The notes: generated from the letters alone by a model not told the origin. DNA of 64,000 nt from an uncultured Acetobacteraceae bacterium (GCA_964242575.1 CAXTCN010000012.1:3204-67203); one strand, 5' to 3'. Counted from the stretch's first letter, positions 6,647 to 32,721 are shown. Program-made: numbers and translations.

Positions 6647-6660
6647 GGCGCGCCGCCGGG

Positions 6661-12438: not shown

Positions 12439-12843
12439 GTGCTGGCCCGGCTGCACGAGGCCGGGGCCACGTTGCTGTCGCTGCCGCACACCGGGCACGG
12501 CACGCAACTGCGCCAGGGCGGGTTGGAGTGGGTGCGGGACGCGGCCACGGGCTATGGCGCGGCACCCGCCCGGCTGCGTCCGCCGGTGCCGAGCGCCGCC
12601 GCGATCGACCGGATGGACGTGGCGCTGGCGTGGATTTCGCTCATTCCCGAGGACAAGCGCGTGCTGCGCCGGGTGGTGGGCGCGCGCAGCCTGATTAGCC
12701 CGATGACCGGGCGGCACGTTTACAGTTGGCGGCGGATCGGCGCGGCGGTGGGGGCGGACCACAAGGCGATGCAGCGGTGGCACGCGCAGGGGGTGGACCT
12801 TATCGTGGCGGCGTTGAACGCGCCGCGTACGAGTACGCGGTGA
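12439..12843 (+). CDS. HTH-like protein accompanying the RepA-like ATPase (DUF6362-like)
   Basis: The conserved-looking part is ...LLSLPHTGHGTQLRQGGLEW...ISLIPEDKRVLRRVVGARSL...SWRRIGAAVGADHKAMQRWHAQGVDLIVAAL. The track ORF starts at 12094 and an ATG lies at 12154, but that N-terminus is the translated iteron array. In-frame GTG at 12439 is proposed as the start. Confidence 0.5.
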   Translation: MLARLHEAGATLLSLPHTGHGTQLRQGGLEWVRDAATGYGAAPARLRPPVPSAAAIDRMDVALAWISLIPEDKRVLRRVVGARSLISPMTGRHVYSWRRIGAAVGADHKAMQRWHAQGVDLIVAALNAPRTSTR

Positions 12844-13774
12844 CGGGCAGCCGGGGTTCCGGCGACAGTGGCGCGCGGAGGCCGCGGAGCATGGCGGCGG
12901 CGATGCGCTTGAGCTGCGGCGTGCCGGCGGCGCGGGCGTGCTCGGCGCGCAGCACGCGGCCCATGGTGCGGACCGCCGCCACCATTCCGAAGTGCTTGCG
13001 CAGCAGTTGCGCGTAGCTGGCGTAGTACAGCCGGGTGACGGCCGGGCTGTACTCGCCGCCGGACGACGCGCCGCCCTCGTGCAGCAGCGTGGGGTCCGGC
13101 AGGTAATGGATGGGGATGCCGGCGGCATTGAGGCGCATGCAGAGGTCCACGTCCTCCCAATAGACGAAAAAGCTTTCGTCCAGCAGGCCGACCTGTTCCA
13201 GCGCCTCCAACGCTAAGCCGAGGCAGCAGCCGCTGGCGAAGTCCACTTGGCGCGGGGTGGGCGGGTCCTCGGGCCGGTACTCCTCGTGCTTGTTGGCGAA
13301 GGTCCAGCCGTAGTCCAGGTGGCCGCCGGCGTACCAGGAACGCGCCGGGTCATCGGTCCGCATGACGCGCGGCGCGACGACGGGCCACTCGTGCTCCATC
13401 CAGGTGTCCAGCAGGTCTTGCAGGAAGTTGGGCGGCGGCACGGTGTCGGGGTTCAGCAGCAGGAACCTTTGCGCGTCCTGTTCCGCGGCGGCGCGCAAGC
13501 CCTGGTTCACCGCGCGGGCGAAGCCGACGTTCGTGTCGTTGGCGATGATGGTGACGCGCGGGTCCGCGAGGGCGCGCAGGGTGTTCATGGACGTGTCGGC
13601 GGAGGCGTTGTCGATGGCGATGAGCCGCCAGTCCCCCATGCGCTGCGCCACCAGGTGCAGCCACAGCGTGGTGAAGGCCTCGTTGCTGTTGTACAGCACG
13701 GTGACGATGTGGATGAGGGGCGGGTTCATGGCGGAGGGTTGTCTAGCCGCAACGGAGCCGGCTGGGTAGGTCAT
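12800..13774 (-). CDS. Family 2 glycosyltransferase
   Basis: IVTVLYNS...LIAIDNASADTS...NDTNVGFARAVNQGL is the GT-A fold with a DxD-type motif. Start is either 13774 or 13729. Confidence 0.8.
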   Translation of the reverse strand: MTYPAGSVAARQPSAMNPPLIHIVTVLYNSNEAFTTLWLHLVAQRMGDWRLIAIDNASADTSMNTLRALADPRVTIIANDTNVGFARAVNQGLRAAAEQDAQRFLLLNPDTVPPPNFLQDLLDTWMEHEWPVVAPRVMRTDDPARSWYAGGHLDYGWTFANKHEEYRPEDPPTPRQVDFASGCCLGLALEALEQVGLLDESFFVYWEDVDLCMRLNAAGIPIHYLPDPTLLHEGGASSGGEYSPAVTRLYYASYAQLLRKHFGMVAAVRTMGRVLRAEHARAAGTPQLKRIAAAMLRGLRAPLSPEPRLPVTAYSYAARSTPPR

Positions 13775-13875
13775 AGGAATGGCGCCGCAACGACATATCG
13801 GTTAACCCACATTAACGTCGTTGTTTGTAGGGATAGTAATTTGCCTATGCCTGGCCAGGCTAGCCGACTGGTGCC

Positions 13876-15132
13876 GTGCAAGTCATTGGATGGCATTGCA
13901 CCATGAATACCCTTGTCGTCATGTACCTCCACATACCCTTGAAAGCAGACGATCATAACGGGTTGGTGCGGCGGTGCCGCGCGTTCCTGCACGCGCTGCA
14001 CGAGGTCAGCCACCAAATCACGCTGCTTCAGATAGTTCCCGCCGATCAGATCGACGCGGCCGGACCGCTTGACCGGCTCAGCCAGGCGCAGTCCGAGTTT
14101 TGGGGCGTGCCGTTGCGCATAGCCCTCGTGCCGCGCCGCCCCCGGACGGAGACGGCCTGGCGTCACTACGGAGCAGGCATCTTGAACGCCGAAGCGCAGC
14201 CGACCCTGTTCCCATACGGCGGCGAGGCGGTGGCGAACGCAGTGGCCGCTCACCTGGACCAACAGCCGGACCTGGTGTTCGCCCAGGGCCTGCCGGCGAT
14301 GCTGCCGATCCTGCGCAGCCGCCGCCGTCCGCGGCGCCTGGTGTTCGATATGATCGATGTCGAGCACAAAGTCATGTTCCGGCAGGCGTTCAGCGCCCCG
14401 CGCTATTTGGGCAAGCCGGCCCGGTTGTTGCAGGTTCCGGCCTTGATGGCGTTGGAGCGCCGGTCCGTGGCGGCGTCCCACTTGACGTTTGTTTGCTCCG
14501 ATACGGACCGCGCATACTTGCGGCGGACAGGCTTCGGCGACACAATTCGGGTCGTGCCGAACGCGTTGGCATTGCCCGCTGACCCGCCCGGCGTCGTCAA
14601 GGACGGCACGGTGCTGTTCCTGGGCGACGCGGGCTACCCGCCCAACCATTATGCCGCGGAACGGATGGCGCGCCGCATTTGGCCCCGGGTGCACGCGGCC
14701 ATGCCCGACGCGCGGCTGCTGATTGCGGGCCGGGGCTCGGACCTCCTGTTGTCCGCCGCCGAGGGCCTGCCGGGGGTGGAGCACTTGGGCTTCGTGCCGG
14801 ACCTCGATGCGCTGTATGCCCGGTCCCGCGTGGTGTGCGCGCCCATCATGACCGGCGGCGGCACGCGGTTGAAGCTGGTGGAGGCCGCGTCCTACGCGCG
14901 GCCCATGGTGTCCACGCGGATCGGCGCGGAAGGGCTGGACTTCGTGGACGGGCAACAGGCGCTGCTGCGCGACGACGACGCGGGGTTCGCCGACGCGTGC
15001 GTGGCGCTGCTGCGGGACGACGCGCTGTGCCGGCGGCTGGGCGAGGCGGCGCGGGCGGTGATGGCGGCGGAGTACGACGTGCGCCGGGTGGAGGCGCGCA
15101 TCGTGGAGATGATCGGTAGTGTCTCAGTTTGA
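13876..15132 (+). CDS. Group 1 (GT4-type) glycosyltransferase
   Basis: C-terminal ...RVVCAPIMTGGGTRLKLVEAASYARPMVSTRIGAEGL is the GT-B E-x7-E region. Alternative ATG at 13903. Confidence 0.75.
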   Translation: MQVIGWHCTMNTLVVMYLHIPLKADDHNGLVRRCRAFLHALHEVSHQITLLQIVPADQIDAAGPLDRLSQAQSEFWGVPLRIALVPRRPRTETAWRHYGAGILNAEAQPTLFPYGGEAVANAVAAHLDQQPDLVFAQGLPAMLPILRSRRRPRRLVFDMIDVEHKVMFRQAFSAPRYLGKPARLLQVPALMALERRSVAASHLTFVCSDTDRAYLRRTGFGDTIRVVPNALALPADPPGVVKDGTVLFLGDAGYPPNHYAAERMARRIWPRVHAAMPDARLLIAGRGSDLLLSAAEGLPGVEHLGFVPDLDALYARSRVVCAPIMTGGGTRLKLVEAASYARPMVSTRIGAEGLDFVDGQQALLRDDDAGFADACVALLRDDALCRRLGEAARAVMAAEYDVRRVEARIVEMIGSVSV

Positions 15133-15335
15133 GATCCCTGATACTCACCATCTGCACCAGAAGCCATTAACAATCCAGCTTTGAAGCATGTTAATCTTGT
15201 AGCTTACAATGTGCGAAAGGGTAAAATAATGCGCCCCTCGTAGAATACGTGCGCCTTCTATAACGTATGGATGGATCTTGTGATGAGTTGTGTATGGTTA
15301 ACGAGGCATTCCAATACGTACATTGATGCAAGTAT

Positions 15336-15938
15336 TTAATCCGCAAGAGCTATAAATTTTTCCCTCCGTTCAGGCCAAGTCGGGCTGAGGACAATGGAAG
15401 CATAGGGTTCCGGTATAGCTAACAAACGAGCAACTTCGGACGGCGTCATATGCTTCTCAACGAGGCGTGCAATTGCTTCTTCAGGACACAATACGGCCAA
15501 AGCCTGGTAAGTAGCAACTTCCTCGAAAAGAGCCATAGGACTCATTTCTGTGTCAACAAACCCATTGAGAGACATATTATTTAGAAGTTCTTCGCCCTTC
15601 TCGCGTGAATTTACTTTTAGCTCTTCTGGATCAAGTGCATGTATAAGCTCTTTTACACAGATAAGTCTTTGCCAATCTAGAGCGCTATTTCTGTTATATC
15701 TGACAACACAGTGAACAATACTTGCCCCATACGTAAGGGTATTCTCATAGATAATAATGTTCCCACGTAGATGCCCTACTGGGCCGTCGAATGGGGATAT
15801 GATGATACGATCATAGTATCCCCATTCGACTATTTGATTCCGGATTTCAGCGACTTCGACTGGAACTTTTGTAAAACGCGAAAACAGATTAACTAGTCTT
15901 CGGACAGTTATGCACTCGCCTTTGGTAAGAAAAGCCCT
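15336..15938 (-). CDS. 200-codon open frame, ImmA/IrrE-like with KExxH in place of HExxH; no canonical start in the first 121 codons
   Basis: AT-rich DNA, yet open from the TAG at 15941-15939 down to the stop at 15336. The first ATG/GTG/TTG is at 15575 (track ORF). WQRLICVKELIHAL aligns to the rqrFtlaHElgH metallopeptidase motif. Confidence 0.4.
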   Translation of the reverse strand, partial: RAFLTKGECITVRRLVNLFSRFTKVPVEVAEIRNQIVEWGYYDRIIISPFDGPVGHLRGNIIIYENTLTYGASIVHCVVRYNRNSALDWQRLICVKELIHALDPEELKVNSREKGEELLNNMSLNGFVDTEMSPMALFEEVATYQALAVLCPEEAIARLVEKHMTPSEVARLLAIPEPYASIVLSPTWPERREKFIALAD

Positions 15939-15955
15939 CTATTTGGAGGGCTTTT
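15930..15955 (-). terminator. Rho-independent terminator after the 81-aa gene
   Basis: AAAAGCCCTC-tatttg-GAGGGCTTTT. On the minus strand the GC stem is followed by UUUUCUU. Confidence 0.7.
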
Positions 15956-15958
15956 GAA

Positions 15959-16204
15959 TTACCGCAAAGTTAATACGTCTATCTTGGGTGAGTTGCTGAT
16001 TGGAGGAGCATCCAGCAAATTACCTTCATTTTCCCAAGTATGCGCAATTACCTCTTTGGCTGCTAGGCACATCTGATCCACAGTTAAATCTTTCGCGTTT
16101 CCACGAAAAAATTTAACGTTTAGAACCTTCTTATCATCTCTGTCGAACAGAAACGCGAGTAGCCTTTCCCGTTCAGTCATCAATCTCGTCCTTTCCACTC
16201 CCAC
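15959..16204 (-). CDS. Hypothetical small protein in the AT-rich islet
   Basis: 81-aa ORF (alternative ATG at 16180, MTERERLLAFLF...). No recognised motif. Confidence 0.45.
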   Translation of the reverse strand: MGVERTRLMTERERLLAFLFDRDDKKVLNVKFFRGNAKDLTVDQMCLAAKEVIAHTWENEGNLLDAPPISNSPKIDVLTLR

Positions 16205-16473
16205 CGCACCGCGATGGCTTGCTTAGCATCTCAACACCCCACTATTCCCTTGAGGCGCACGCAAGATATATAACACGTCCGGCGCATACCATCGTATTTC
16301 ATCATCGATAAATTAATTGGCTGCGTTGTGATAAAAATTCTGTGTTTCGCGCCAGCATGAGCGTCAGTGGCTTAGGATAATCAGCCTCAAGTTTAGATTC
16401 CATCAAACAATCGAGGGGTTGGCGGCGTAGGGTCATGCTGCGTGCACCCTACGCGCCAAACCTCACCAAACCC

Positions 16474-18077: not shown

Positions 18078-18781
18078 GGCGTTGGATATGGGCGTTGTTG
18101 GCGTTGGCCGGGCCGGCACAGGCGCAGGGGTTTTATGAGGGCCGGGCCATCGTGACCGGCATGGACCAGCGCAGCCGCCCGGACGGGTTGCGCGCCGGGT
18201 TGGCGCAGGTGCTGGCGCGCGTGGCGGGGGACCCGGCGTTGCTCGATGACCCGCGCGTGGCGGCGCTGGACCCTGGGCCGACGCTGGTGGGTTTTGCCTA
18301 TTTGGACCGCATGTCCGACTTGCCGCGGCAGGACGAACAGGGGTCGCGCGACCGTCCTTATGACTTGGTGGCGCAGTTCGACCCGGCCGCCATCGCGGCG
18401 GCGCTGCGCGGGTTGGGCCGGACGGTGTGGCCCGAGGCGGCACGGCCGGTGCTGACGGTTGCCGTTTCCGTGACGCCGCGGGTGGGCGACGCTTTCACCT
18501 TGGCGCCGGACACCGACGTGGACGAACGGCACCGAGCGGCGCTGCTGGTGGCGGGCGCGCGGTTCGGCATGGCGCTGCGGATTGATGCGGCACCGGCGCT
18601 GGACGCGCGGGCGCTGCGGGGTGCGCTGGCGTGGGAGGACGGCGGCTGGCGGGCGTCGTGGAGCATTTTGGCTTCGGGCCGCACCCAGGAATGGACGATC
18701 GCCGGCGTGGGGTTCGACGCGGCGTATCGCAACGGCGTCGGCGGCGCGGCGCGGGCGCTTTCGGCTGAGTGGGCGAAATAA
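18074..18781 (+). CDS. DUF2066-like secreted protein
   Basis: GTG 18074 overlaps the marR stop. Signal peptide WIWALLALAGPAQAQG followed by FYEGRAIVTG..., typical of DUF2066. Confidence 0.55.
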   Translation: MRRWIWALLALAGPAQAQGFYEGRAIVTGMDQRSRPDGLRAGLAQVLARVAGDPALLDDPRVAALDPGPTLVGFAYLDRMSDLPRQDEQGSRDRPYDLVAQFDPAAIAAALRGLGRTVWPEAARPVLTVAVSVTPRVGDAFTLAPDTDVDERHRAALLVAGARFGMALRIDAAPALDARALRGALAWEDGGWRASWSILASGRTQEWTIAGVGFDAAYRNGVGGAARALSAEWAK

Positions 18782-18792
18782 GGGGCATCGGC

Positions 18793-20085
18793 ATGGCACG
18801 CATTCATCCGGCTTGGCGCGTGGCGGCGGTCACGTTCGTGGTGCTGCTGGTGGCGGCCGGCATCCGGTCCGCGCCCGGGGTGCTGATCGTGCCCTTGGAA
18901 GGCGAGTTCGGCTGGTCGCGCGCCACGACGGGTTTCGCGGTGGCGGTGAACATCGTGCTGTATGGGCTGGCCGGGCCGTTCGCGGCGGCCATCATCGAGC
19001 GGTTCGGCCTGCGGCGCACCGTCGGGACCGCGCTCGCTATCATGGCGCTGGGCGTCGGCCTCACGCCGTTCATGACGCAGCCCTGGCATTTGGTGGCGCT
19101 GTGGGGCGTCGTGGTGGGGGGTGCCTCTGGCGTGACAGCGCTGGTGCTGGCGACCACGGTGGCGAGCCGCTGGTTCTCGGCCCGGCGCGGCCTGGTGGTG
19201 GGCCTGCTGACCGCCAGCACGGCGACGGGGCAGCTCGTGTTCCTGCCGCTGCTGGCGCACCTGGCCAGCACGGTGGGGTGGCGGGCCATCAGCCTGTTGC
19301 TGGCGTGCGTGGCGGCGGCGTTGATCTTGCCGGTGCTGGGGTTCATGCGGGACCGGCCGGTGGATTTGGGCATCCCGCCGTATGGCGGCACGGCGGTGGT
19401 GCCGCGCGTCCGGCCCACCGTGAACCCGGCCGTGCGCGCCATGCTGGCGTTGCGCGACGGGCTGCGGTCCGGGGATTTCTGGCTGCTGGGCGGCACGTTC
19501 TTCGTGTGCGGCGCCAGCACCAACGGGCTGATCGGCACGCATTTGATCCCGGCGTGCATCGACAACGGCATCCCCGAGGTGATGGCGGCCGGGCTGCTGG
19601 CGGCGATGGGGGTGTTCGACATGGTGGGCACCACGCTGTCCGGCTGGCTGTCGGACCGGTATGACAACCGGGTTTTATTGGCGTGGTACTATGGGTTCCG
19701 CGGATTGAGCCTGCTGTTCCTGCCGTTCGCCTTGGCGGGCGGGCTGTTCGGGCCGGCCGGTCCGACGCCGTTGCTGTTGGGCATCTTTGCGGTGTTCTAC
19801 GGGCTGGACTGGATTGCGACGGTGCCGCCCACGGTGCGGCTGGCGGCGCGGTGTTTCGGCGAGGAGAACGCTCCGGTTATGTTCGGCTGGATCGCGTGCA
19901 TGCACCAGTTGGGCGCGGGCATGGCGGCGTGGGGCGCCGGGCTGATCCGCGTGGAGGCCGGGACCTACGTGCCGGCGTTCCTGGCGGCGGGGGCGCTTTG
20001 TTTGGTGGCGAGCGTCATGGTGGCGTTCATTGGCGGGGACCGGCGTGCGGTGGCGGGGGCGCCGGTTCCTGGGGCGGCGGCTTAG
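18793..20085 (+). CDS. MFS transporter
   Basis: About 12 hydrophobic segments and an ...IIERFGLRRT... loop 2-3 motif. ATG at 18793. Confidence 0.8.
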   Translation: MARIHPAWRVAAVTFVVLLVAAGIRSAPGVLIVPLEGEFGWSRATTGFAVAVNIVLYGLAGPFAAAIIERFGLRRTVGTALAIMALGVGLTPFMTQPWHLVALWGVVVGGASGVTALVLATTVASRWFSARRGLVVGLLTASTATGQLVFLPLLAHLASTVGWRAISLLLACVAAALILPVLGFMRDRPVDLGIPPYGGTAVVPRVRPTVNPAVRAMLALRDGLRSGDFWLLGGTFFVCGASTNGLIGTHLIPACIDNGIPEVMAAGLLAAMGVFDMVGTTLSGWLSDRYDNRVLLAWYYGFRGLSLLFLPFALAGGLFGPAGPTPLLLGIFAVFYGLDWIATVPPTVRLAARCFGEENAPVMFGWIACMHQLGAGMAAWGAGLIRVEAGTYVPAFLAAGALCLVASVMVAFIGGDRRAVAGAPVPGAAA

Positions 20086-20240
20086 CGCACCAGCCAGGCC
20101 GGGACGCTGGACAGCATAGGCTTGCCCAGGGTTCGGGCGATTGGGCTTGTGAGCGCCGGATACTTGCAACGAACGGCATTGCTGGTTGTGCGATGCTGGC
20201 GGGCACGCACTTCCGGGTGGGTGCGTGATGCGGATGATGC

Positions 20241-20264
20241 GCGTGAGCGTGAGCGTGAGCGTGA
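20241..20264. repeat. Hexanucleotide microsatellite (GCGTGA)x4
   Basis: Four perfect tandem copies, flanked by degenerate copies, about 100 bp upstream of the large ORF. Confidence 0.8.
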
Positions 20265-20365
20265 GGCGCAAGTGGGCGGACGGCCGTCATGCGATAGATG
20301 ATCCGGTGCCTGCACAATCATAAGTTGCTGTCGCAAAAGTTCGTCAGCAGCTTGACAATTCCGAG

Positions 20366-23300
20366 TTGTTTATGGTGCGATACCGCAATGAGGCCTATGG
20401 CGGGCCGCTCGCGTCGATAGCCGGCCGCGTCAGCGCTGGCAGCAGGGTTATGGTCATGGGAGCGATTGCCGAGTACGCCAAGGCTGCAGCTGCCGTTGCA
20501 AAGGATGCAGCCGCCGTTGCAGCCGTTGTCGCCAAGGATGCAGCAGCCGTTGCAGCCGTTGCTGTTGGGCTTTCAGTGCTGGCCTGGGTGATTGGCGTTG
20601 GCATTATTAGGTTGTGGCGCGGCAAGCGGGCTCCATTCGGTCTTGCGCCCTTTGTGGCTGCGCCTGAGTTGGATGCCAGCATCGGACCTATTGTCCGCAT
20701 GGCGCTCCTTATGGAGTTACGGCGGGCGTCCGCACTCTGGCATCAGCAGGTCCGTAAGCCACGGGATGGGAACGGGGGAAATGGCAGCGGGAACAAGGAA
20801 CTGCTCAGGATCGAGATAGCGACCCGGGGGCAAGTTCGCGCGATGCCGAGCTCAAGCTTGTCGCTCGTTTCCACTCCTTGGTCGAGCGGCACGGCCAGCG
20901 ACTACGAGAGCCTAAGGGGCAGATGGGACACATTGCCCGACGCTGCAGTCAGCCGCGTTTTGCCGCAATGGAGTGAGCCGAAGTCGTCTCTGCTTTCAAG
21001 CCATGTCTCGGCGCCCTCTTCCAAGTTCGAGAGCGACGCGATCGAGATTGGAAGCGCTGGCACGAAAATCGCCGTGCTGAAGTTGGCCAAAGCGCTGTGG
21101 AGGTGGAAACCGGACAAGTACGAACGCGAGGTTGAAGGATACATGGGGTGCCTCGACGGCCACCTGCGCGCGACCGCAGTGGTAAGGCCAAAAAGGTTCA
21201 TTGTTCGCACGCGTTCCCGGCTGGGGGAGCGCATCGGTCGCGCGTGCCGCTGGCTGGGAAGGCTGGGGGTTCGGGCGTGTCGTCGGCTGGGGGAGCGTGT
21301 CGTTCGCGCGTGCATCTGGCTGGGGGAGCGCATGGATCGCGCGTGCCGCGGGCTTGGAGAGCGCATGGATCGGGCGTGTTCCTGGTTCGAAGGGCCGGTG
21401 GTCCGGGCCTGCCGCTGGCTGGGGACGCGCATGAACTGGGCGTGCGTCTGGTTGGAGGGGCCGGTGGTCCGGGCCTGCCGCTGGCTGGGGGAGCGCATGG
21501 ATCGCGCGTGTTCCTGGTTGGAAGGGCCGGTGGTCCGGGCCTGTCGCTGGCTAGGGGAGCGCATGGACTGGGCGTGCATCTGGTTGGAGGGGCCGGTGCA
21601 TCGGGCCTGCCGCTGGCTCGCGGGGCACATCGTTCACGCGCCTCGCTGGCTGAAGGGGCGCCTAGTTCGTGCGCGTCGCTGGCTGGAGGGGCGCATAGTC
21701 CGCGTGCCTCGCTGGCTGGGTTTACTCAGGCCGCAGGGGGTTATGGGCCACCATGGCATCAAGGCCTGGGAGACGCGGGAACATGAGTGCGCGGCAAGGC
21801 TGGTGCATCCGGTGAGCGTCGCGGAACGAACGGGGGGACCGGGCGGGGCGGCGAGGGCGGCTGGACCCGATAATGCCGGGAAGGCCACGTCGGCCGACGT
21901 TGTTGAGAGGGCCGCCGAGCTTGGAGTCGAGCTGGCCTACAGGATACTGGCTGGCGGGACGGACGCTGGCTGGCAGGCGGACAAGCATTACGTCGCCGCC
22001 GTGGCGTGCTACAACCTTGGCGTAAGCAACGGCAAGAGCGAGCCACTGCGCCAAACTCTTGAACGCGTGAAGGAAATACGCAGGATCAGCCCAGGTTACG
22101 AACGCCTGCCGAACCTGATGATCGCAGTCTCCGACGAGCTGCTCAAGTTGCAGGACATCGAAGGCGCAGAGCAGGCGCTGCTTGCCGTGACGTCCGACTA
22201 CGACGCGCCCGGCAACACAGGTGCGGCAAGAACGCGGGTATGGGAGCGATCTGAGCGTGAGCGGATATACGAAAGCGAACGGATAGAGATTTTTTCGCGT
22301 CTAAGTTCGATTTACATCCGAAAAGGCAACCGCAAGGCAGCCAACTCAGCGCTGAAGCAATCCGAAGGTCTGGTGGAACGCAGTCCGAACAAAGCGGATT
22401 ATAATGATTACGTGAGGCAAGTAATAAGCCCAATTTCGGCTGCGCTCATGGCCTTGCCGAACGAAGACAGTGGTGAGACAGAAGATAACGACAGAATAAA
22501 AGCACAGAAAATTGTTGAGAGTTTGGTAACGGATATATACTCTGAAACTTCAAAGCCTATTTTCATCATACAGAAAAACAACGATAGTGAAATTAAACAA
22601 GGTCTGCGTGATATTGAAATTGCTGATCAGTTAGCAAAAATACACTTCAATGCAGATGCACTCGCAAGATACTTGAGTGCAGAGAGCACGCTTGGAAAGT
22701 TCGACCAGTTCAAAAATAATATGAGGTATATCCACTGGCGTCGTGGTGTTATGCATCAATTCACTTATCTTGAGGGTCGTCGCAAGGCCGAGGCTTCAGC
22801 CTTGGAATTTAGAAAGATTTGGAGGAAGTTGAGTGTGCATTTCGAACTGAAAGATAGCAGTGCAAAGAAAAAATTCGACGAGCTGTTTGAACAAGCGCCA
22901 AACTGGTTGCGTAACACAAAGGATTGGAGGAGAGAGTCCATACAAATAACGAAGATCGACGAGCACCGTAAAAAGGAACAACTAGCTCGCCTTAATGGAC
23001 AGCGAGATCGCCTTATTAGAAGCTTTGATGAATGTGCTCTAATTATAGCGCCAGCCAAAGAGGAAGAAAAAGACAAAGCAGAACAAGAAACAAAGACGTC
23101 GGAGTCTGTCGAGTGGTTAACTCAAGCAAGAACCTGCCTCGAAGCATTCTTGGAAGAATCTAATCAGGCCAAGACGGGTTTCAGTGATGCAGAGGACGCT
23201 TTCAGAGAAGCTACAATAGAAGCTGAAAGAATAGATCTGCTGCCTGGCCGGCGGCGCAAAAGAGTATTCGATTTATTTAACAAAAATAACAGAATCAGCG

Positions 23301-24496
23301 AAGAAAAACAAGAGAGCGATAAGTGGTACGTAGTCGAAGCATGGAATGATTTGGGGGTATTGCTTTCTGCAACAGATCGCCTTCCCGATGCTAAAGAAGA
23401 ACTCAATAAGGCATCACGCAAGGTAGCGACGGAGTGGGATATACAGCATAACCTCGCCTTAGTGGAAAACAAGATTCTTGAAACGTATGGCGCTAAGCGG
23501 ACCGCCGATGCACCGAAACAGGCTAGTGACAACAAGAGCCCAACCACCTTTGGCAAGGTTGTCGGACTTTACCATGACGCCATAACGCTCGCGCCCGCCG
23601 AAGCGCTCCCAAGGATCAACCTGGCTCAGCTTCTTGAACGCACCGGCAAGCACGAGGCTGCCCGGTTGCATTTTGCCGCTGCCCAGGCAAACGCCGCCGC
23701 GAGACGCGGCGTCGATGCGCTGCACGACTTAAAGCAGTGCATCTACGGCCAGGCCCGCGTTCTCGAAAGGCTTGGGCGCTTTAAGGAGGCGGCGGACATC
23801 TTGGAGGCGCATCATACCGTTGAACCGGAAAACGCGGGCATCGAACTTTACCTGGGACTACTGAAACTTAGGCAGGGCATGGTCACTGACGGAGACGGCC
23901 ATGAGCAGGCGCTCATTCACGTCCGGCGTTCACGCGACGTCGCCGCGAGCAGCAAGACGAGCCACGACGATGAACTGATCGAGCGTCTGGCTGATGAAAA
24001 TGAAGGGTTCATCTATCGCTGCATGGGCTTGCCCCGGATAGCTCGATCATACTTCGAGCGTTGCAAAGACGAGAGCGCCTATGCGTGCGCAAGCCTGTCG
24101 TTCATGGCCTATGAGGCTGAAAAGCTGGACGATGAGAAGAAGTATAGAACGCAAGCCTCGAAGCTGAGAGATGAGAAAAAGAGTGCGAACTTAAACACGG
24201 GCGGCAACCAGAACAAAAACGCGTGCGCCGAGAACTACATTGAAGCGTGCTTCAATACCTTGATTGGAGACACTGACAAGGCTTTCGAGTCTCTTGAGAA
24301 AGCGCTGATCTGGCAGCCCGGAATACGGGAGTGGTGCCGGGTGGACCCTGATTTCAAGCGCATCGCTCATACCAAGCGCTTCCAGGAGTTGCTCGGGCCA
24401 AAAAGAAAACCGGCCAAGGAGAACGGCGAGCTCGCAGTCCCGCCCTCACCGCACCAGCCAGGCCACAACGGCGCCCAGGAAGGAGAAGCCCGCTAA
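20366..24496 (+). CDS. Very large membrane-anchored repeat protein with TPR-like helical C-terminal region
   Basis: Uninterrupted 1376 codons across GC-rich and AT-rich DNA. One TM segment (GLSVLAWVIGVGIIRLW), 15 x 11-aa repeats, and a C-terminus ending ...AFESLEKALIWQPGIREWCRVDPDFKRIAHTKRFQELLG, typical of TPR proteins. Start is uncertain (TTG 20366, ATG 20372 or 20450). Confidence 0.65.
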   Translation: MFMVRYRNEAYGGPLASIAGRVSAGSRVMVMGAIAEYAKAAAAVAKDAAAVAAVVAKDAAAVAAVAVGLSVLAWVIGVGIIRLWRGKRAPFGLAPFVAAPELDASIGPIVRMALLMELRRASALWHQQVRKPRDGNGGNGSGNKELLRIEIATRGQVRAMPSSSLSLVSTPWSSGTASDYESLRGRWDTLPDAAVSRVLPQWSEPKSSLLSSHVSAPSSKFESDAIEIGSAGTKIAVLKLAKALWRWKPDKYEREVEGYMGCLDGHLRATAVVRPKRFIVRTRSRLGERIGRACRWLGRLGVRACRRLGERVVRACIWLGERMDRACRGLGERMDRACSWFEGPVVRACRWLGTRMNWACVWLEGPVVRACRWLGERMDRACSWLEGPVVRACRWLGERMDWACIWLEGPVHRACRWLAGHIVHAPRWLKGRLVRARRWLEGRIVRVPRWLGLLRPQGVMGHHGIKAWETREHECAARLVHPVSVAERTGGPGGAARAAGPDNAGKATSADVVERAAELGVELAYRILAGGTDAGWQADKHYVAAVACYNLGVSNGKSEPLRQTLERVKEIRRISPGYERLPNLMIAVSDELLKLQDIEGAEQALLAVTSDYDAPGNTGAARTRVWERSERERIYESERIEIFSRLSSIYIRKGNRKAANSALKQSEGLVERSPNKADYNDYVRQVISPISAALMALPNEDSGETEDNDRIKAQKIVESLVTDIYSETSKPIFIIQKNNDSEIKQGLRDIEIADQLAKIHFNADALARYLSAESTLGKFDQFKNNMRYIHWRRGVMHQFTYLEGRRKAEASALEFRKIWRKLSVHFELKDSSAKKKFDELFEQAPNWLRNTKDWRRESIQITKIDEHRKKEQLARLNGQRDRLIRSFDECALIIAPAKEEEKDKAEQETKTSESVEWLTQARTCLEAFLEESNQAKTGFSDAEDAFREATIEAERIDLLPGRRRKRVFDLFNKNNRISEEKQESDKWYVVEAWNDLGVLLSATDRLPDAKEELNKASRKVATEWDIQHNLALVENKILETYGAKRTADAPKQASDNKSPTTFGKVVGLYHDAITLAPAEALPRINLAQLLERTGKHEAARLHFAAAQANAAARRGVDALHDLKQCIYGQARVLERLGRFKEAADILEAHHTVEPENAGIELYLGLLKLRQGMVTDGDGHEQALIHVRRSRDVAASSKTSHDDELIERLADENEGFIYRCMGLPRIARSYFERCKDESAYACASLSFMAYEAEKLDDEKKYRTQASKLRDEKKSANLNTGGNQNKNACAENYIEACFNTLIGDTDKAFESLEKALIWQPGIREWCRVDPDFKRIAHTKRFQELLGPKRKPAKENGELAVPPSPHQPGHNGAQEGEAR
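21221..21715 (+). repeat. 15 tandem 33-bp (11-codon) repeats inside the large ORF
   Basis: Units LGERMDRACSW / LEGPVVRACRW alternate, giving a 66-bp super-repeat in the centre with degenerate edges. Confidence 0.9.
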
Positions 24497-24583
24497 TATC
24501 AGAATGGCGCGCAACGCGCCGCCCTGTAGCGTGGGGCCGAGCACGGTGCGTAGGACATTGTCGCTGGGATTGTTGTTGGCCAT
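24446..24583 (-). CDS. Possible 45-aa membrane peptide
   Basis: Below the track cutoff. ATG at 24583 is preceded by GAAGGAA. MANNNPSDNVLRTVLGPTLQGGALRAILILAGFSFLGAVVAWLVR. Overlaps the 3' end of the large ORF by 51 nt. Confidence 0.3.
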   Translation of the reverse strand: MANNNPSDNVLRTVLGPTLQGGALRAILILAGFSFLGAVVAWLVR

Positions 24584-24744
24584 CGGGAATTCCTTCTGCG
24601 AACGCTGGATACAGGCCGCCGCGCCGGTTGTGAAGCGCAGCGCCCATGCAGCATTAACGCTTTAGCAAGCTATCCCTTGTAGGTTTAGCTGGACCAAGGT
24701 GATACACAAAGCCAGGTTCGGAACACGGGGTGCGACAACCGGCC

Positions 24745-25608
24745 ATGCGGATCGCGGCGCTGACGATGGTTTACAACGAGCCGCTGTGGGCCAAGGCGTG
24801 GGCGCGGCACTATGCGGCGGAGCTGGGGGCGGAGCATTGCGTGATGCTCGACCATGGCTCCGACGACGGCAGCACGGCGGCGGACCGGTTGGGCGCGCCG
24901 GTGCGGGTGGAGCGGCTGCACCGGTCGCCGTTGGATGAGGAGTGGCGGCTGCGGGTGGTGACGGCGCGGGTGCGGGGGTTGCTGCGCGAGTACGACGCGG
25001 TGTTCCACTCGGACGTGGACGAGCTGCTGGTCGCGGACCCGGCGCGCTATGCCGGCCTGCGCGCGTTGGCGGAGGGCACAACCGCGCCGGTGCTGACGGC
25101 GGTGGGGCTGGACGTGCAGCACATGCCGGACGAGGCGGCGCTGGACCCTGGGCGGCCGGTGGGCGCGCAGCGGAGCTGGGTGCGGTTTTCGGCGGCGATG
25201 TGCAAGCCGGCGCTGGTGCGCCATCCCGTCGCGTGGTGCCCGGGGTTCCACAGCAGCGACGCGGACTTGATTTTCGATGGGTTGTACCTGTTGCATATGC
25301 GCTATGCGGATTTGGACGCCGGGCTGCTGCGGCTGGCGCGGACGCGGGGCCAGGCGTTCGCCGGGCCGGAGGTGGCGGTGCACCAGCGGGTGACGGACAC
25401 GGAGTTTGCGGCGATGATGCGCGCCATCGCCGGCCTGCCGCGGGGGACAGGCGAGCTTGACCCGGCCGCTGCGCCGTTGGCGCCCTGGCTCGACCGGCTG
25501 CGGCAGTCGCGCGCGGCGCGGGAGACGGAGCGGTTCAAGCTGGACTTGGCGCTGTCCGGCAACGAGCTTTGGCAGGCTGGCCGGCTGTTGCGGGCGGTGC
25601 GCGGCTAG
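24745..25608 (+). CDS. Glycosyltransferase family 2-like protein
   Basis: MRIAALTMVYNEPLW...VMLDHGSDDGS...FHSDVDELL is a GT-A-type N-terminus with a DxD motif. Confidence 0.6.
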   Translation: MRIAALTMVYNEPLWAKAWARHYAAELGAEHCVMLDHGSDDGSTAADRLGAPVRVERLHRSPLDEEWRLRVVTARVRGLLREYDAVFHSDVDELLVADPARYAGLRALAEGTTAPVLTAVGLDVQHMPDEAALDPGRPVGAQRSWVRFSAAMCKPALVRHPVAWCPGFHSSDADLIFDGLYLLHMRYADLDAGLLRLARTRGQAFAGPEVAVHQRVTDTEFAAMMRAIAGLPRGTGELDPAAAPLAPWLDRLRQSRAARETERFKLDLALSGNELWQAGRLLRAVRG

Positions 25609-27928: not shown

Positions 27929-28948
27929 ATGGCGAGGTTGCCGGGTCAAGTAACACTGACTTTGGCTTGGCTCCTGGCTTTTCAAGGAAAGAGCGAGAGA
28001 GGAGTTTACTTGGTATTGTGCGCTTATGTGGATGATAGCGGTCGAGGAAATAAGCCCGTCTTCGTTTTAGCAGGACTTCTTGCTGATACCGCTTCCTGGG
28101 CCAGGTTTTCCGACGATTGAGATGAAGAACTAAAGAAAGAGCCGTTCAAAAGATACAGCAAAATGCAAGAGTATATGCGGCTTGATATATGGGATGATCC
28201 GACATCGCCGCAAAGGTTAGCAAAGCTTTATGCACTTCAAAGCATTATGAACAAACACGTAGAATGCGGATTTTCAATTTCGTTTCTCAGTGGCGATTAC
28301 AGGGAAATCTTCAAAGAGGCAGTTCCAAAACTCTGGCGTTCGGAATATCACTTTGCTGTTAGAGCTTTCATTTCTGAACTTCTTAATCACGAATACGAAA
28401 GCGGGCGAACGAGTAAGATCGACTTCATTTTCGATGAGCAGACTAACGAGAGCGCCGCTGTTGAGATTTCATGGAAGCGTCTAAAGCAAGGCGGTGCCTC
28501 GAGTAGATTTAGGAGAAGGATGGGATCTATCACTTACGGGTCCGACCAACACCTTAGGCCCCTTCAAGCTGCAGATATGATGGCTTGGCTATCTAGAAGG
28601 ATGTCTGCTGACATGCTTGGGGATGCCGGACAACTCTGGCCTGAAAACGCAGGTGAGCCACTTTACGATGCCAGAATTCTTAACATGGGGAACCCGAAAA
28701 TGGTTCTGGAGGCGATCCAGGCAGGGGACGGAACCCCCGCAGACGCGCATGCCATGGCTCTTAGGTTGTCCTCTAAAGCTTGGCACGCAGGGCGCGGCCT
28801 AAACATACCCATGAGAAACAGGTTTATCGATCGCGAGCAGCTGGAGATGCACCGAAACCGCTTAGTGGCAGCGGGTGAGCTTGTGCTCAAGCCAGATACA
28901 CCGCGCCTAACTAGGCGCCAGCGCAAGCAATTATCTCAAAATCAATGA
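27929..28948 (+). pseudogene. DUF3800-like gene interrupted by one in-frame TGA
   Basis: Track ORFs 27929..28120 and 28163..28948 are in the same frame, and the only interruption is the TGA at 28118-28120. The N-terminus LCAYVDDSGRG...VFVLAG is the DUF3800 signature. The AT-rich islet sits directly upstream of the terminase genes. Confidence 0.6.
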
Positions 28949-29185: not shown

Positions 29186-29404
29186 ATGCCGACGCCGCTG
29201 GAAGTGCTGCTGCGCGTGATGAACCGGAAATGGACGGAGGGGGACGAGGACGGGGCGGTGCAGTTGGCCAAGGCCGCCGCGCCGTATGTCCACCCGCGGG
29301 CGGCGGCGCGGGGGTCAGTGGATTTGGCGGAAGTGGGGGACGATGAGCTGGAACGGATGCACGGCGGCGACGGAGCGGGCGCTGCGGAGGGACCTCCGGA
29401 CTAG
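29186..29404 (+). CDS. Short terminase small-subunit-like protein
   Basis: GGAGG RBS. PLEVLLRVMN...AAKAAAPYVHPR resembles the C-terminal motif of small terminase subunits of alphaproteobacterial phages. Only 72 aa, overlapping the TerL start. Confidence 0.35.
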   Translation: MPTPLEVLLRVMNRKWTEGDEDGAVQLAKAAAPYVHPRAAARGSVDLAEVGDDELERMHGGDGAGAAEGPPD

Positions 29405-30740
29405 CTTCGCGCGCTGGGCCGGGTTCGCGTTGGCGCCGCTGGGCCAGGCGCCGGCGCGGCACCACCGGCTGATGATCCAGGAGCTTGAGGCGGTGGCGCG
29501 CGGGGATTGCGACCGGCTGATGCTGCTGATGCCGCCTGGTTCGGCCAAAAGCACCTACGCCAGCCTGCTGTTCCCGCCGTGGTTCATGGCCCGGCAACCT
29601 GGCGCGCAAGTCATCGCCGTGAGCCATACGGCGGCGCTCGCGGAGGCGTTCGGGCGCGGGGTGCGCGGGGCCGTCACGCAGCACGGCGCGCGGCTGGGCG
29701 TGCGGCTGGACGGCGCAAGCCGGGCGGCGGGGCGGTTCGGGACATCGGGCGGCGGCGGCTATTACGCGACCGGGGTGCGCGGGCCGGTGACCGGGCGCCG
29801 GGCGGATTTGCTGCTGATCGACGACCCGGTGAAGTCCCAGGCGGAGGCCGACAGCGCGCCCCTGCGGGACCGGGCGTGGGACTGGTATCGCTCGGACCTG
29901 GTGACGCGACTGCGTCCCGGCGGGCGGATCGTGCTGGTGATGACGCGCTGGCACCCGGACGACCTCGGCGGACGGCTGCTGGAGGCGGCCGAGCTGGGCG
30001 GGGAGCCGTGGCGCGTGGTGCGCCTGCCGGCGCTGGCGGAGGGCGCCGACGCGCTGGGCCGCGCCCCCGGCGAGGCGCTGTGGCCGGAGTGGGAGGGCGT
30101 GGCCGCGCTGGAACGGAAGCGCCTGGCGGTCGGCGAGCGGGCGTTCGAGGCGCTGTTCCAGCAAAACCCGCGCGTGCCCGGCGGACGGCTGTTCCAGGTC
30201 GGGCGCATGGCAGTGGCGGACCAGCCGGCGGAGGGCGTGAGCGTGCGGGCCTGGGATTTGGCCGCGAGCGCCGGCGGCGACTGGACCGCCGGCGTGCGCC
30301 TGGCGCGCGGCGACGCGGGCGCGTGGCAGGTGCGCGACGTGGTGCGGCTGCGCGGCGGCCCGGAGGACGTGGTGCAGGCCATCCTGCGCACCGCCGAGCG
30401 GGACGGCGCCGGCGTCGCCATCGGCTTGCCGCAGGACCCCGGGCAGGCCGGGCGCAGCCAGGTCGCGTTCCTGACGCGGGCGCTGGCGGGCTGGCGGGTC
30501 ATCAGCGGGCCGGAAAGCGGGGCCAAGGCGACGCGGGCCATGCCGGTCGCGAGCCAGGCGAACGCGGGCAACGTCAGCGTGTTGCGCGCCCCGTGGAACC
30601 GAGCTTTCCTGGAGGAGTTGCAGGACTTCCCGGGCGGCGCGAAGGACGACCAGGTGGACGCCCTGGCGCGGGCGTTCGGGATGCTGCTGGAGGCGCGGAC
30701 GCCGGCGCAGGTGCGGCGGATGGACTGGGGGTTGCGGTGA
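29343..30740 (+). CDS. terL: Terminase large subunit
   Basis: Walker A LMPPGSAKST, Walker B ADLLLIDDPVKS, coupling motif VMTRWHPDDL, and C-terminal nuclease DDQVDAL. Confidence 0.9.
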   Translation: MSWNGCTAATERALRRDLRTSFARWAGFALAPLGQAPARHHRLMIQELEAVARGDCDRLMLLMPPGSAKSTYASLLFPPWFMARQPGAQVIAVSHTAALAEAFGRGVRGAVTQHGARLGVRLDGASRAAGRFGTSGGGGYYATGVRGPVTGRRADLLLIDDPVKSQAEADSAPLRDRAWDWYRSDLVTRLRPGGRIVLVMTRWHPDDLGGRLLEAAELGGEPWRVVRLPALAEGADALGRAPGEALWPEWEGVAALERKRLAVGERAFEALFQQNPRVPGGRLFQVGRMAVADQPAEGVSVRAWDLAASAGGDWTAGVRLARGDAGAWQVRDVVRLRGGPEDVVQAILRTAERDGAGVAIGLPQDPGQAGRSQVAFLTRALAGWRVISGPESGAKATRAMPVASQANAGNVSVLRAPWNRAFLEELQDFPGGAKDDQVDALARAFGMLLEARTPAQVRRMDWGLR

Positions 30741-31712
30741 ATGCGGCGTCGGGCGTTGCTGCTGGGCGTGCTGGCGGCGGGGTGCGCGGGGGATGGCCCG
30801 GGCGTCGCCGCGGACATTGAGGCGGCGGCGGACACGGAGCTGCGGCGGCGTCCCGCGTTCTACGTGAACGGCGAGGCGCGGGGCTGGCTGGTGCGGCGCG
30901 ATGGCCATGAGGCCGGGCTGCTGTGGGGCACCTGGCATGTGGCATACGACGACGCCACGGTGATGCCGCGCGCCGTGCGGGCGCGGTTCAACGCCAGCGC
31001 CAGCCTTACGGTCGAGCGGCTGCTGTCGCGCTCGCAGTACGCGGCGCTGCGCGGCGCGCAGGAGGGCGCAGTGCGGCGTCCGGACCCGTCGGCGCTGTCC
31101 CGGCTGGGCGCGGAAACCTTGGCGGCGCTGGCGGAGGCCGGGGTGGACGCGGGCGACGCCGGGCTGAGCCTGCTGGGCTTGGCGGAGGCGGTCAGCGCCA
31201 ACGCCATGACGGAGCCGGCGCCCATGCTGCCGCACACGGGCATCGTGGACGCCAACCTGGTCGGGTTCGCGCAGAGCATCGGCGTCCCGGTGCGGGCGCT
31301 GGAGGCCGAGGACGGCTACGTTGACCCTTTATATCAAGAGCCGAACGGCCCGGCCGCGGCGGCTCTGCTGCGCCAGGTGCTGCGTCAGGGCCAGGACGCG
31401 CGGGCGTTCCGTCGCGCGCTGCGCTCGTTGTACGCGGCCGGCCGGGTGGACCGCGTGCTGGCCGCGACGGTGGGCTGGCGGGCGGAACCGGCGGACCTGG
31501 CGCGCGACGACGCGGCGCGCGACGGCCTGTTGACCCGGCGCAACCTCGCCTGGCTGCCGGGGCTGGAGCGGACGTTGCGGGAGGACGGGTTCCACTTCGT
31601 GGCGTTCGGCGCCGGGCACTTGATGGGGGATGACGGGGTGGTGGCGCTGTTGCGCGGGCGCGGGTGGGACGTGGCGGCGTGCGTGGCGGATCGGTGCGGG
31701 TTGCCAGCGTGA
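30741..31712 (+). CDS. TraB/GumN-family lipoprotein (cargo)
   Basis: Lipobox LLGVLAAGCAG. ...LLWGTWHV... and ...FVAFGAGHLMGDDGVVALLRGRGWDV are GumN-family end motifs. The ATG abuts the TerL stop (TGAATG). Confidence 0.65.
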   Translation: MRRRALLLGVLAAGCAGDGPGVAADIEAAADTELRRRPAFYVNGEARGWLVRRDGHEAGLLWGTWHVAYDDATVMPRAVRARFNASASLTVERLLSRSQYAALRGAQEGAVRRPDPSALSRLGAETLAALAEAGVDAGDAGLSLLGLAEAVSANAMTEPAPMLPHTGIVDANLVGFAQSIGVPVRALEAEDGYVDPLYQEPNGPAAAALLRQVLRQGQDARAFRRALRSLYAAGRVDRVLAATVGWRAEPADLARDDAARDGLLTRRNLAWLPGLERTLREDGFHFVAFGAGHLMGDDGVVALLRGRGWDVAACVADRCGLPA

Positions 31713-31861
31713 TGGCTTTGGGGGTGATGGGGCTTTGCTCCTGAAGCACTGTTGCCTGTATGCACGGTTTGAAGTGAACAGTTATTCTGAGCGACGCTGA
31801 CGCCCTGACGTCTGCTGGCTTATGGCGGAGATGCAAAGCGAAGCAGGCTGTCGCCAAGATT

Positions 31862-32206
31862 ATGGTGGATGATCGTGAGAATTGCCGCGAGGCATGGGTT
31901 GCGGCAGGGTTCGGCGTGGAGTTTGCCTTGAAGGCGTTAATTCTCAAGCGTGAGAGATTGAACGCGTGGCCTTCGCTGGAGCATCGCCCAGACCTCCATA
32001 TCCATAACCTCAAAAAGCTGTTCAAGATCGCGGGGCTTGATCCGAACGCCGCTCCGACAGACGTGAAGCCAGCGATCCGGCAGGTTTTGGATTGGAACCG
32101 GAATCACGACTATGTGGCCAGGCCGATGCCGCGTAAGGTGGCCCGGTCGATGGTTGAGGCGGCGTTCGGGCCTTCGGGGGTGGTGGAGTGGTTGAAGTCT
32201 CTTTGA
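31862..32206 (+). CDS. Small helical protein, HEPN-like pattern (weak)
   Basis: GFGVEFALKALILKRE...HNLKKLFKIAG...WNRNHDYVARP follows the HEPN helix pattern, but no clear Rx4-6H motif is present. The frame is open upstream to 31778 without a canonical start. Confidence 0.4.
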   Translation: MVDDRENCREAWVAAGFGVEFALKALILKRERLNAWPSLEHRPDLHIHNLKKLFKIAGLDPNAAPTDVKPAIRQVLDWNRNHDYVARPMPRKVARSMVEAAFGPSGVVEWLKSL

Positions 32207-32721
32207 CCTTGGACCCAAAGATCAGCGCCGCCGCCGAACGCGCGCTTGACAGCCGGCGCATGCAAGCCGGCAAGGAGTATCTGGACGCGCTGCATCGGCT
32301 GGGCCTTGAGCCGGATGTGTTTTGCTGGATTTACGACGCAGTCGAGGACGGGATTGAACTTGCCATTGTTACGTCCATCGCAGAGCGTATTGGCAGCCTG
32401 GACATCTACAAGCTCTTGTTCCGTGCTTATGAGGCTGCGGCGACGCCACGCGACATAGACCCGTTTATTGTATCCATCTATGGTCCCAACTCGTTCTATG
32501 GTGCCATGCTGCGCGAGCACATTCGCACTCTGGCGGCAGACGGAGCGTTCTCCGATCCTGGAAACGCCACGCGGTTCACGACAGTCATGGAAAACTCGGC
32601 CGAGCTTAAAGTCATGCTTGCCCGAGGTGTGTATGCGAGGGGAGACACTCGCAGGTCAGCAGCCCAAGATTTGAAGAGATGGAGCCGTTTTAAGCAGAAC
32701 GTGGAAGCGCTGGCTGCGTGA
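32188..32721 (+). CDS. Hypothetical protein coupled to the preceding gene
   Basis: GTG 32188 or TTG 32203 (TTGA overlap with the upstream stop). 170-177 aa with no recognised motif. Confidence 0.45.
   Translation: MVEVSLTLDPKISAAAERALDSRRMQAGKEYLDALHRLGLEPDVFCWIYDAVEDGIELAIVTSIAERIGSLDIYKLLFRAYEAAATPRDIDPFIVSIYGPNSFYGAMLREHIRTLAADGAFSDPGNATRFTTVMENSAELKVMLARGVYARGDTRRSAAQDLKRWSRFKQNVEALAA

Follow-up and report, generated by a model that had tools for sequence, protein, structure and literature searches.

A rare family of predicted membrane-anchored TPR proteins, one with an amplified hendecad array, found beside prophage genes of an uncultured Acetobacteraceae bacterium

Membrane-associated tetratricopeptide repeat (TPR) proteins are common in polysaccharide export, where the BcsC, PelB, PgaA and AlgK types are membrane or periplasmic scaffolds, and TPR arrays also serve as sensors in STAND/Avs proteins. 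Long TPR-type solenoids ending in the motif TPR_END_plus are collected in NCBIfam NF047558, a domain-level label without an assigned function. Amphipathic helical repeats of 11 or 22 residues are known from apolipoprotein A-I, perilipin and alpha-synuclein. Here we describe a gene whose predicted product bears some likeness to each of these. It is an open reading frame (ORF) at 20366..24496 (+) of a 64,000-nucleotide stretch of DNA from an uncultured Acetobacteraceae bacterium (GCA_964242575.1 CAXTCN010000012.1:3204-67203; hereafter the window, whose positions are used throughout). An earlier note, made from this sequence alone, had described the ORF as a GC-rich, membrane-anchored repeat head fused to an AT-rich TPR-like body. 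Our analysis indicates that it is a single gene, one member of a family of three, and that, carried on mobile DNA, it could encode an adaptor or sensor whose TPR body is cytoplasmic and tethered to the inner membrane.

One gene and its two relatives

We searched 1.84 billion (1.84e9) protein representatives exhaustively with phmmer, using as query P0001, the sole database protein that matches the ORF (917 aa, 100% identical, beginning at Met460, position 21743; gene model 21743..24496 (+)). Two of the matches are genuine relatives, namely P0002 (956 aa, E 8e-89) and P0003 (1030 aa, E 3e-59), each called as a single protein on its own contig; the other 24 are weak and confined to the TPR_END stretch. 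The similarity is not limited to the query, since window residues 56-280 match the N-termini of P0002 (BLASTP E 2e-25, 34% identity) and P0003 (E 1e-17, 31%). The relatives and the window ORF share one layout, namely a short N-terminus, one transmembrane helix, a juxtamembrane motif, a probably disordered linker, a conserved helical segment, a long TPR body and TPR_END_plus. Their three-member alignment contains ~200 invariant columns, with the same domain order and significant similarity in both head and body; the three copies have diverged to 30-38% identity and all are full length. By sequence, then, the window ORF, P0002 and P0003 make up a new three-member family.

The family is extremely rare, with three members among the 1.84e9 representatives. 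No relatives were found in GTDB species genomes, IMG/VR or JGI metagenomes, or by tblastn in phage and plasmid records. A word-indexed protein search with the whole ORF recovered only its truncated self model P0001, and with the head alone or a profile of the three head sequences it recovered nothing, a weak negative because P0002 and P0003 were also missed (Ala-rich proteins of low complexity had probably crowded out others among the 8000 candidates). The transmembrane head, the juxtamembrane motif, the hendecad array and the central region appear to have no counterpart outside the family. The earlier note could match the protein to no characterised family, and this stands: apart from TPR, no Pfam, PADLOC or PHROG family was found.

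The ORF is one uninterrupted maximal frame of 1376 codons, running from TTG 20366 (first ATG at 20372) to the stop codon at 24494-24496. From base composition, the probability that the 401 codons of the AT-rich zone stay open by chance is ~5e-12, so the earlier argument that a frame open through this DNA must be real is well founded. Nothing points to a split frame either: head and body are joined in both relatives, each of which is a single protein, no terminator-like sites were detected inside the ORF on its own strand, and promoter-like sites are not in excess (3 versus 1.5 +/- 1.3 expected, all within AT-rich DNA). A scan of 19.5-25.2 kb with Rfam revealed no RNA family. The long frame is a single real gene, and it stands alone between a transporter of the MFS type and a glycosyltransferase (Table 1), as had been proposed.

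Codons 1-459 of the ORF have no database entry, and public annotation leaves the head non-coding. Because of the homology of residues 56-280 to the start of P0002 and P0003, we judge P0001 to be a 5'-truncated gene call that lacks the first third of the protein, including the membrane anchor. One could instead take the database model at face value and suppose that only the 917-aa protein from Met460 is made, the upstream 459 codons forming either a leader, untranslated or decayed, or a product of their own. Besides the public call at 21743, a GGGGG just upstream of the Met460 ATG would speak for this, as would the readiness with which GC-rich DNA yields open frames, exemplified by an antisense ORF (20902..21630) that shares third positions with the array. 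Yet the upstream part aligns with the N-terminal sequences of P0002 and P0003 at the E-values given above, its 459 codons contain neither stop nor frameshift, the array copies within it are free of indels and are under purifying selection in the ORF frame (see below), and the residues directly after Met460 (ECAARL...SADVVERAAELGVELAYRIL) are internal in both relatives. We therefore regard exclusive initiation at Met460 as very improbable; additional internal initiation there, alongside the long product, may occur. The antisense ORF was itself rejected as a gene on three grounds: the sense-frame flanks are homologous to the relatives, GC content at first codon positions exceeds that at second positions in the sense frame, and the antisense product is of low complexity and has no relatives. 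The ratio of nonsynonymous to synonymous differences (pN/pS) does not separate the two frames (0.38 antisense versus 0.36 sense).

The coding sequence probably starts at ATG 20450 or 20456, giving a product of ~1346-1348 aa, because the relatives begin 12-15 residues ahead of the transmembrane helix, AGGG lies 4-12 nt upstream of these ATGs, and a perfect TTGACA (20352-20357) overlaps the earlier start candidates. This hexamer matches a -35 element and is followed 18 nt later by a weak -10 element (TGCGAT), both overlapping the earliest start candidates, and a (GCGTGA)x4 microsatellite occupies 20241-20265 in the intergenic DNA upstream. At the other end, a 45-aa ORF on the minus strand (MANNNPSDNVLRTVLGPTLQGGALRAILILAGFSFLGAVVAWLVR, 24446-24583 (-)) is convergent with the big ORF, whose last 51 nt it overlaps; it encodes one hydrophobic helix, has GAAGGAA 8 nt upstream of its ATG, and is either a small membrane protein or a chance ORF.

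The three compositional zones recognised earlier are evident in windowed GC content: between flanks of 0.71-0.77, the stretch 20.3-21.2 kb has 0.59-0.62, 21.2-21.9 kb has 0.69-0.73, 22.3-23.4 kb has 0.40-0.45 and 23.5-24.5 kb has 0.53-0.61. GC content at third codon positions (GC3) of the ORF frame starts at 0.60-0.77 in the head, rises to 0.80-0.90 over the array, drops to 0.33-0.55 in the centre and recovers to 0.67-0.72 in the tail; over the whole ORF it is 0.63, versus 0.91-0.92 in the flanking MFS and glycosyltransferase genes. The earlier note had taken the zone 20.4-22.2 kb to be as GC-rich as the host and had seen in the mosaic a chimera of native and foreign DNA. We could confirm neither point: the head has a GC content of 0.60 versus 0.73 in the host, and only the array, which was recently amplified, approaches host values.

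Had a GC-rich head of native origin recently been joined to an AT-rich body of foreign origin, this would account for the sharp change in GC content (0.72 to 0.40 within ~600 bp) and could be read into the two segments specific to the window copy, the repeat array and a ~150-aa Lys/Glu-rich helical insertion at residues ~800-960 that is missing from both relatives. These two segments are, however, the only additions to the window copy, and head and body occur together in both relatives. Neither the GC content nor the GC3 of the head is host-like. Conserved residues continue throughout the AT-rich zone (invariant residues at R645-A659, A693/L694, A763-L776, Y788-M796, W987 and E1023-A1031), and a GC trough occupies the homologous alignment columns (~780-1140) of all three genes (0.38-0.50 in the window, 0.54-0.57 in P0002 and 0.37-0.45 in P0003). 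A recent chimera is thus highly unlikely. The genes of the relatives are also lower in GC content than their own flanks (0.62 versus 0.66-0.72 for P0002 at locus L001, and 0.51 versus 0.65 for P0003 at locus L002). Since the relatives share the trough and the invariant residues run through the AT-rich zone, the mosaic is a trait of a mobile gene family in GC-rich hosts, and the gene as a whole looks foreign or mobile; recombination between diverged alleles within the family may have taken place.

The orphan-like rarity of the gene, its anomalous composition and its internal tandem duplications would also be expected of an inert, decaying remnant of mobile DNA without current function. This we find hardly credible, given that a 4.1-kb frame has stayed intact, including 1.2 kb of AT-rich DNA, that three copies diverged as far as these have kept full length and ~200 invariant positions in common, and that pN/pS in the array is 0.36.

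Architecture of the predicted protein

The order of parts given in the earlier note, from membrane anchor through linker, hendecad array and TPR body to a TPR end motif, was recovered in full, and the features are collected in Table 1.

Table 1. Features of the window ORF and of the genes around it (positions in the window)
Feature	Residues	Position	Strand	Basis or remark
Ala/Val-rich tandem duplication (AKDAAAVAAV units)		20480..20562	+	TRF period 21, 2 copies, 90% match; repeat family D3
Predicted single transmembrane helix	~59-84	20540..20617	+	Kyte-Doolittle 19-residue mean up to 2.44
Juxtamembrane motif FGLxPFVxAP(E/G)L(D/N)xxIGxxxRxxLxMELxxA	91-122	20636..20731	+	alignment
Variable Ser/Gly/Pro-rich linker	~124-222	20735..21031	+	poorly conserved, indels
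Conserved helical segment DAIxI...KIAVLKLxxxLxxWKP...V.G...L	224-281	21035..21208	+	alignment
Hendecad array, 16 in-register 33-bp repeats, 66/132-bp super-periods		21209..21736	+	no indels
First conserved TPR-like block	458-644	21737..22297	+	many invariant columns at 511-605
AT-rich, fast-evolving central helical region	645-1045	22298..23500	+	GC 0.38-0.50, GC3 0.33-0.55
C-terminal TPR block, best-conserved part	~1046-1291	23501..24238	+	Pfam TPR_12, TPR_19, TPR_14 at 1068-1164
TPR_END_plus, WQPGxREWxRxDPDFxRI	1292-1343	24239..24394	+	NCBIfam NF047558
Primase/helicase-like AAA_25 gene		10869-12167
GT2 glycosyltransferase gene		12800-13801
GT1/GT4 glycosyltransferase gene		13876-15132
MFS transporter gene		18769-20085		upstream neighbour
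GT2-type (GT2_4) glycosyltransferase gene		24730-25608		downstream neighbour
Large terminase gene		29286-30740		start of phage packaging/morphogenesis block
Portal gene		34384-35766		phage block

The head begins with the Ala/Val-rich duplication noted before, which has a 21-bp period, lies just N-terminal of the transmembrane helix and is absent from both relatives. The single hydrophobic stretch and the Ser-rich linker behind it had likewise been described correctly. In all three family members the charge flanking the helix is +3 to +5 on the C-terminal side and -1 to 0 on the N-terminal side, and applying the positive-inside rule to these charges we infer an N-out/C-in topology, in which the ~1250-aa body would be cytoplasmic and tethered to the inner membrane. 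The juxtamembrane motif contains 15 invariant residues (G92, L93, P95, F96, V97, A99, P100, L102, G107, R111, L114, M116, E117, L118 and A121). It is followed by the linker, which is probably disordered, as its AlphaFold2 (AF2) model has a pLDDT of 21-36 and no secondary structure. The conserved segment 224-281 has invariant residues D224, A225, L238, L240, L244, W247, K248, P249, V256, G258, L267, A271 and R277 and is helical in the AF2 model, at low confidence. The head, juxtamembrane motif included, has no match in Pfam, PADLOC or PHROGs, and a profile search of the PDB gave nothing at E up to 10.

The earlier note had counted 15 Cys/Trp/Arg hendecad repeats; 11-residue repeats are indeed present, but there are 16 of them, in perfect register. 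The consensus 11-mer is A-C-R-W-L-G/E-G/E-R/P-V/M-V/D-R, and the 175 residues of the array are 21% Arg, 8.6% Trp (~15 Trp) and 6.9% Cys (12 Cys), with a net charge of +23. The units differ substantially from one another (64-83% matches) and do so without indels. When the four 66-bp super-units that are best conserved are compared, the ORF frame gives a pN/pS of 0.36 and the antisense frame with the same third positions one of 0.38, against at least 0.88 in the other frames; synonymous differences over 15 units amount to 232/791 in the ORF frame versus 123-162 of 768-800 in the other five frames. With the homology on both sides, these frame statistics show that the array is translated and that purifying selection acts on it in the ORF frame. 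The pN/pS values and the lack of indels also led us to reject the alternative of a non-coding DNA repeat.

At the position of the array the relatives carry at most 1-2 degenerate units (LPHWVPHLLRH... in P0002, RFGRLASRLLL... in P0003), and the 16-unit array is therefore a lineage-specific expansion of a short basic segment. The array sequence was not found elsewhere in the window or in IMG/VR. AF2 models it as long helices (pLDDT 55-69). On a helical wheel (98 degrees/residue, 3.67 residues/turn) the hydrophobic residues W4, A1, L5, M/V9 and C2 share one face, which is bordered by Arg, with Glu/Asp on the opposite side. Hydrophobic moments over 22 residues range from 0.3 to 0.8 (reaching 0.5-0.8 at 100 degrees), and the coherent moment at 98.2 degrees is 0.415 versus 0.09 +/- 0.05 in shuffles, with a second peak of 0.349 at 131 degrees, though periodicity alone creates such peaks.

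The body is TPR-like and predicted to be helical, as had been suggested. It passes the Pfam gathering thresholds of TPR_8 (28.6 bits, cut-off 25.7) and TPR_2 (27.6, cut-off 27) and comes just below that of TPR_12 (30.0, cut-off 30.1), while P0002 scores higher (TPR_8, 47 bits). The first block is modelled at pLDDT 60-80 (P0001 residues 80-150), and its equivalent in P0002 matches TPR_8 at E 1.6e-12; the central region is modelled as helices at pLDDT 30-45. The C-terminal block contains the best phmmer stretches to P0002 and P0003. Overall, the AF2 model of the body is all-helical with a mean pLDDT of 51.7, and only the C-terminal ~260 residues reach 65-87. The typical TPR terminal motif noticed earlier is TPR_END_plus: NF047558 matches at E 6e-14 with 51.7 bits against a cut-off of 32, over profile positions 4-55 of 56, which places the protein in this family. 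Foldseek comparison of the body with the PDB gave generic TPR solenoids only (TTC7B, IFT-A, Ctr9, Ski3 and OGT-TPR, query TM-scores at most 0.21), and profile matches in the PDB were to OGT, PEX5, IFIT and designed TPRs. We detected no Walker A motif ([AG]xxxxGK[ST]) in the three proteins, no catalytic or NTPase module in their Pfam and NCBIfam matches, and no PHROG match for the ORF; with the negative PADLOC result, this agrees with the earlier failure to see any catalytic motif.

Surroundings and a possible role

The ORF appears, from the genes around it, to lie in or beside a prophage, and these genes suggest that the host is proteobacterial. The terminase at the start of the packaging and morphogenesis block is closest to those of Acetobacter and Bradyrhizobium phages (42-49%), and the sheath gene has 76% DNA identity to Ralstonia phages. 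At the P0002 locus (L001), the family gene is followed by a 67-aa C-terminal fragment of ComM/Mg-chelatase (3874-4077) and then, at 4547-9890, by genes for Vsr, a restriction endonuclease (REase)-like HATPase protein, a PF28273 protein and a type II cytosine methyltransferase, an arrangement that suggests an island inserted in or near comM. P0003 (L002-L004) is found beside Phd/YoeB and a tyrosine-integrase fragment, and lectin and HSP20 genes are there too. All three members of the family thus occur in mobile or defence-type surroundings.

On this basis we tentatively read the window protein as a membrane-tethered cytoplasmic TPR adaptor or sensor, carried on mobile DNA and serving in conflict. 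The single gene would give a protein of ~1350 aa anchored in the inner membrane by its N-terminal transmembrane helix, with the remainder on the cytoplasmic side. The juxtamembrane motif and flexible linker would lead into a basic Arg/Trp-rich helical segment, amplified here to 16 hendecads, which most likely would lie as amphipathic helices on the anionic inner leaflet, and the TPR solenoid of ~900 aa would offer a platform for one or more protein ligands. The gene itself would be horizontally mobile accessory cargo, because its GC content is lower than that of the flanks in all three loci and its neighbours include prophage, restriction-modification, toxin-antitoxin and integrase genes. In genetic conflict, for instance in excluding phages or maintaining an island, its product would most likely act at the membrane by recruiting a protein ligand or sensing one. 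Taken as one statement, this falls somewhat short of an even chance, with most of the uncertainty in the biological role.

Several observations weigh against this reading. The evidence from context comes from three loci only and is guilt by association. No integrase was found within the window, and the stretch with the glycosyltransferase and MFS genes (GC3 ~0.91) could be prophage cargo or host DNA. The defence families of PADLOC-DB 2.0 gave no match at E up to 1. AF2 modelling of the head plus array, from a three-sequence alignment, reached a mean pLDDT of 41 and showed no recognisable head fold. The amphipathic-helix interpretation of the array is weak, as any 11-periodic sequence peaks at 98.2 degrees and the peak at 131 degrees is nearly as high, and every unit contains Gly and Pro, which could interrupt a helix.

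The genes next to the ORF raise another explanation, that the TPR protein is a scaffold of a glycan or envelope-modification cluster and coordinates the glycosyltransferases, MFS transporter and hydrolase encoded around it, for instance in prophage-borne modification of surface polysaccharide. The ORF does lie among GT2, GT1/GT4, Abhydrolase_3, MFS and GT2_4 genes, its best PDB matches in sequence and fold include the TPR domain of O-GlcNAc transferase (OGT), and the frequency of membrane-associated TPR proteins in polysaccharide export also counts in favour. However, neither relative (L001; L002-L004) has glycosyltransferase neighbours, and the OGT matches reflect generic TPR similarity (query TM-scores at most 0.2). 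With its GC3 far below that of the neighbouring genes and gaps of 280-370 bp to the MFS gene and 234 bp to the glycosyltransferase gene, the ORF looks like a separate insertion. Moreover, the body is predicted to be cytoplasmic, whereas export scaffolds carry periplasmic TPRs. We consider a glycan scaffold unlikely.

The conflict role could also take a more definite form, that of an NTPase-free, single-protein anti-phage system (abortive infection or exclusion) on prophages and defence islands, in which the fast-evolving TPR centre would recognise a phage protein and ligand binding would drive the transmembrane helix and the Arg/Trp segment to disrupt the inner membrane. Array copy number could then tune the potency or threshold of the response. 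We hold this version to be distinctly doubtful.

A number of other observations were made in the window. A 20-nt direct repeat (D7; 18/20 match) has copies at 20081-20100 and 24445-24464, 4364 bp apart; the left copy falls on the stop codon of the MFS gene, where the left GC boundary is, the right copy lies inside the last 17 codons of the ORF, and in reverse complement both encode ...AWLVR followed by a stop. It is possible that the repeat is an att or target-site scar from insertion of the low-GC segment, or that the match is due to chance. Just upstream of the terminase, in a low-GC patch (~0.48), a DUF3800 gene appears split into 27929-28120 and 28163-28948 (+), whose products cover profile positions 2-26 and 62-148, respectively; it has no PADLOC match and may be a frameshifted or decaying accessory gene. 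Further low-GC patches at 15000-16400 (0.47) and 31800-34300 (0.56-0.60), in a background of 0.73, contain ORFs (e.g. 32834-33574 and 33543-34286) with no Pfam or PADLOC match, which may be foreign accessory inserts. A gene of the TraB/PrgY/GumN family (30741-31712 (+)) begins directly at the terminase stop, an unusual position within a packaging module. After the phage tail genes, 60556-63979 (-) encodes an Upf1-like superfamily 1 (SF1) helicase (AAA_11/AAA_12, 863 aa) and a DUF5710 protein, and these genes may mark the prophage end or another accessory module. Finally, a gene for GTP cyclohydrolase II (RibA-type; 2801-4045 (+)) lies near phage-family ORFs (phrog_731, 1939-2751), in what is either host DNA or a mobile element.

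Comparison with known systems

What appears to be new here is that a TPR scaffold, predicted to be membrane-anchored, carries both a head that fits no class and an unusual array of amplified Arg/Trp/Cys hendecads, the TPR body and the NF047558 motif being already known. If the gene model is right, public annotation lacks the membrane anchor and a third of the protein, and the case shows how gene calling can go wrong where a gene in a GC-rich genome is mosaic in composition and contains repeats. The rarity of the family and the location of all three copies on mobile or defence-type DNA make it a candidate for an uncharacterised conflict or accessory function, with the simple layout of an anchor, a basic amphipathic segment and a TPR sensor. 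For now the window gene encodes an orphan TPR protein. Its array, which is lineage-specific, in frame and under selection, provides a natural test of how function depends on the length of an amphipathic segment close to the membrane.

Among the closest described systems are the proteins of NF047558, in that the long TPR-type alpha-solenoid of the window ORF ends in their motif (WQPGxREW...DPDFxRI); the head, array and centre of the window protein have no counterpart there. The BcsC, PelB, PgaA and AlgK scaffolds resemble it as membrane-associated TPR proteins, the window gene lying beside glycosyltransferase genes, but the window protein is predicted to be cytoplasmic and has no porin or beta-barrel, and its relatives lack glycosyltransferase synteny. 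With the STAND/Avs sensors the likeness would be one of working principle only, in the large TPR array, the fast-evolving region and the mobile, defence-type surroundings. The window protein has neither a recognisable effector domain nor a PADLOC match, and because it has no Walker A motif or NTPase module we do not count it as a STAND/Avs member. Apolipoprotein A-I, perilipin and alpha-synuclein, finally, have no sequence homology to the array, which is Arg/Trp/Cys-rich, carries a charge of +23 and sits inside a bacterial, predicted membrane-anchored TPR protein. The array would resemble them in the way it works: it is strictly 11-periodic, with a 22-residue super-period punctuated by Gly-Pro, and its predicted helices may have one hydrophobic side that is bordered by basic residues and lies opposite acidic ones.

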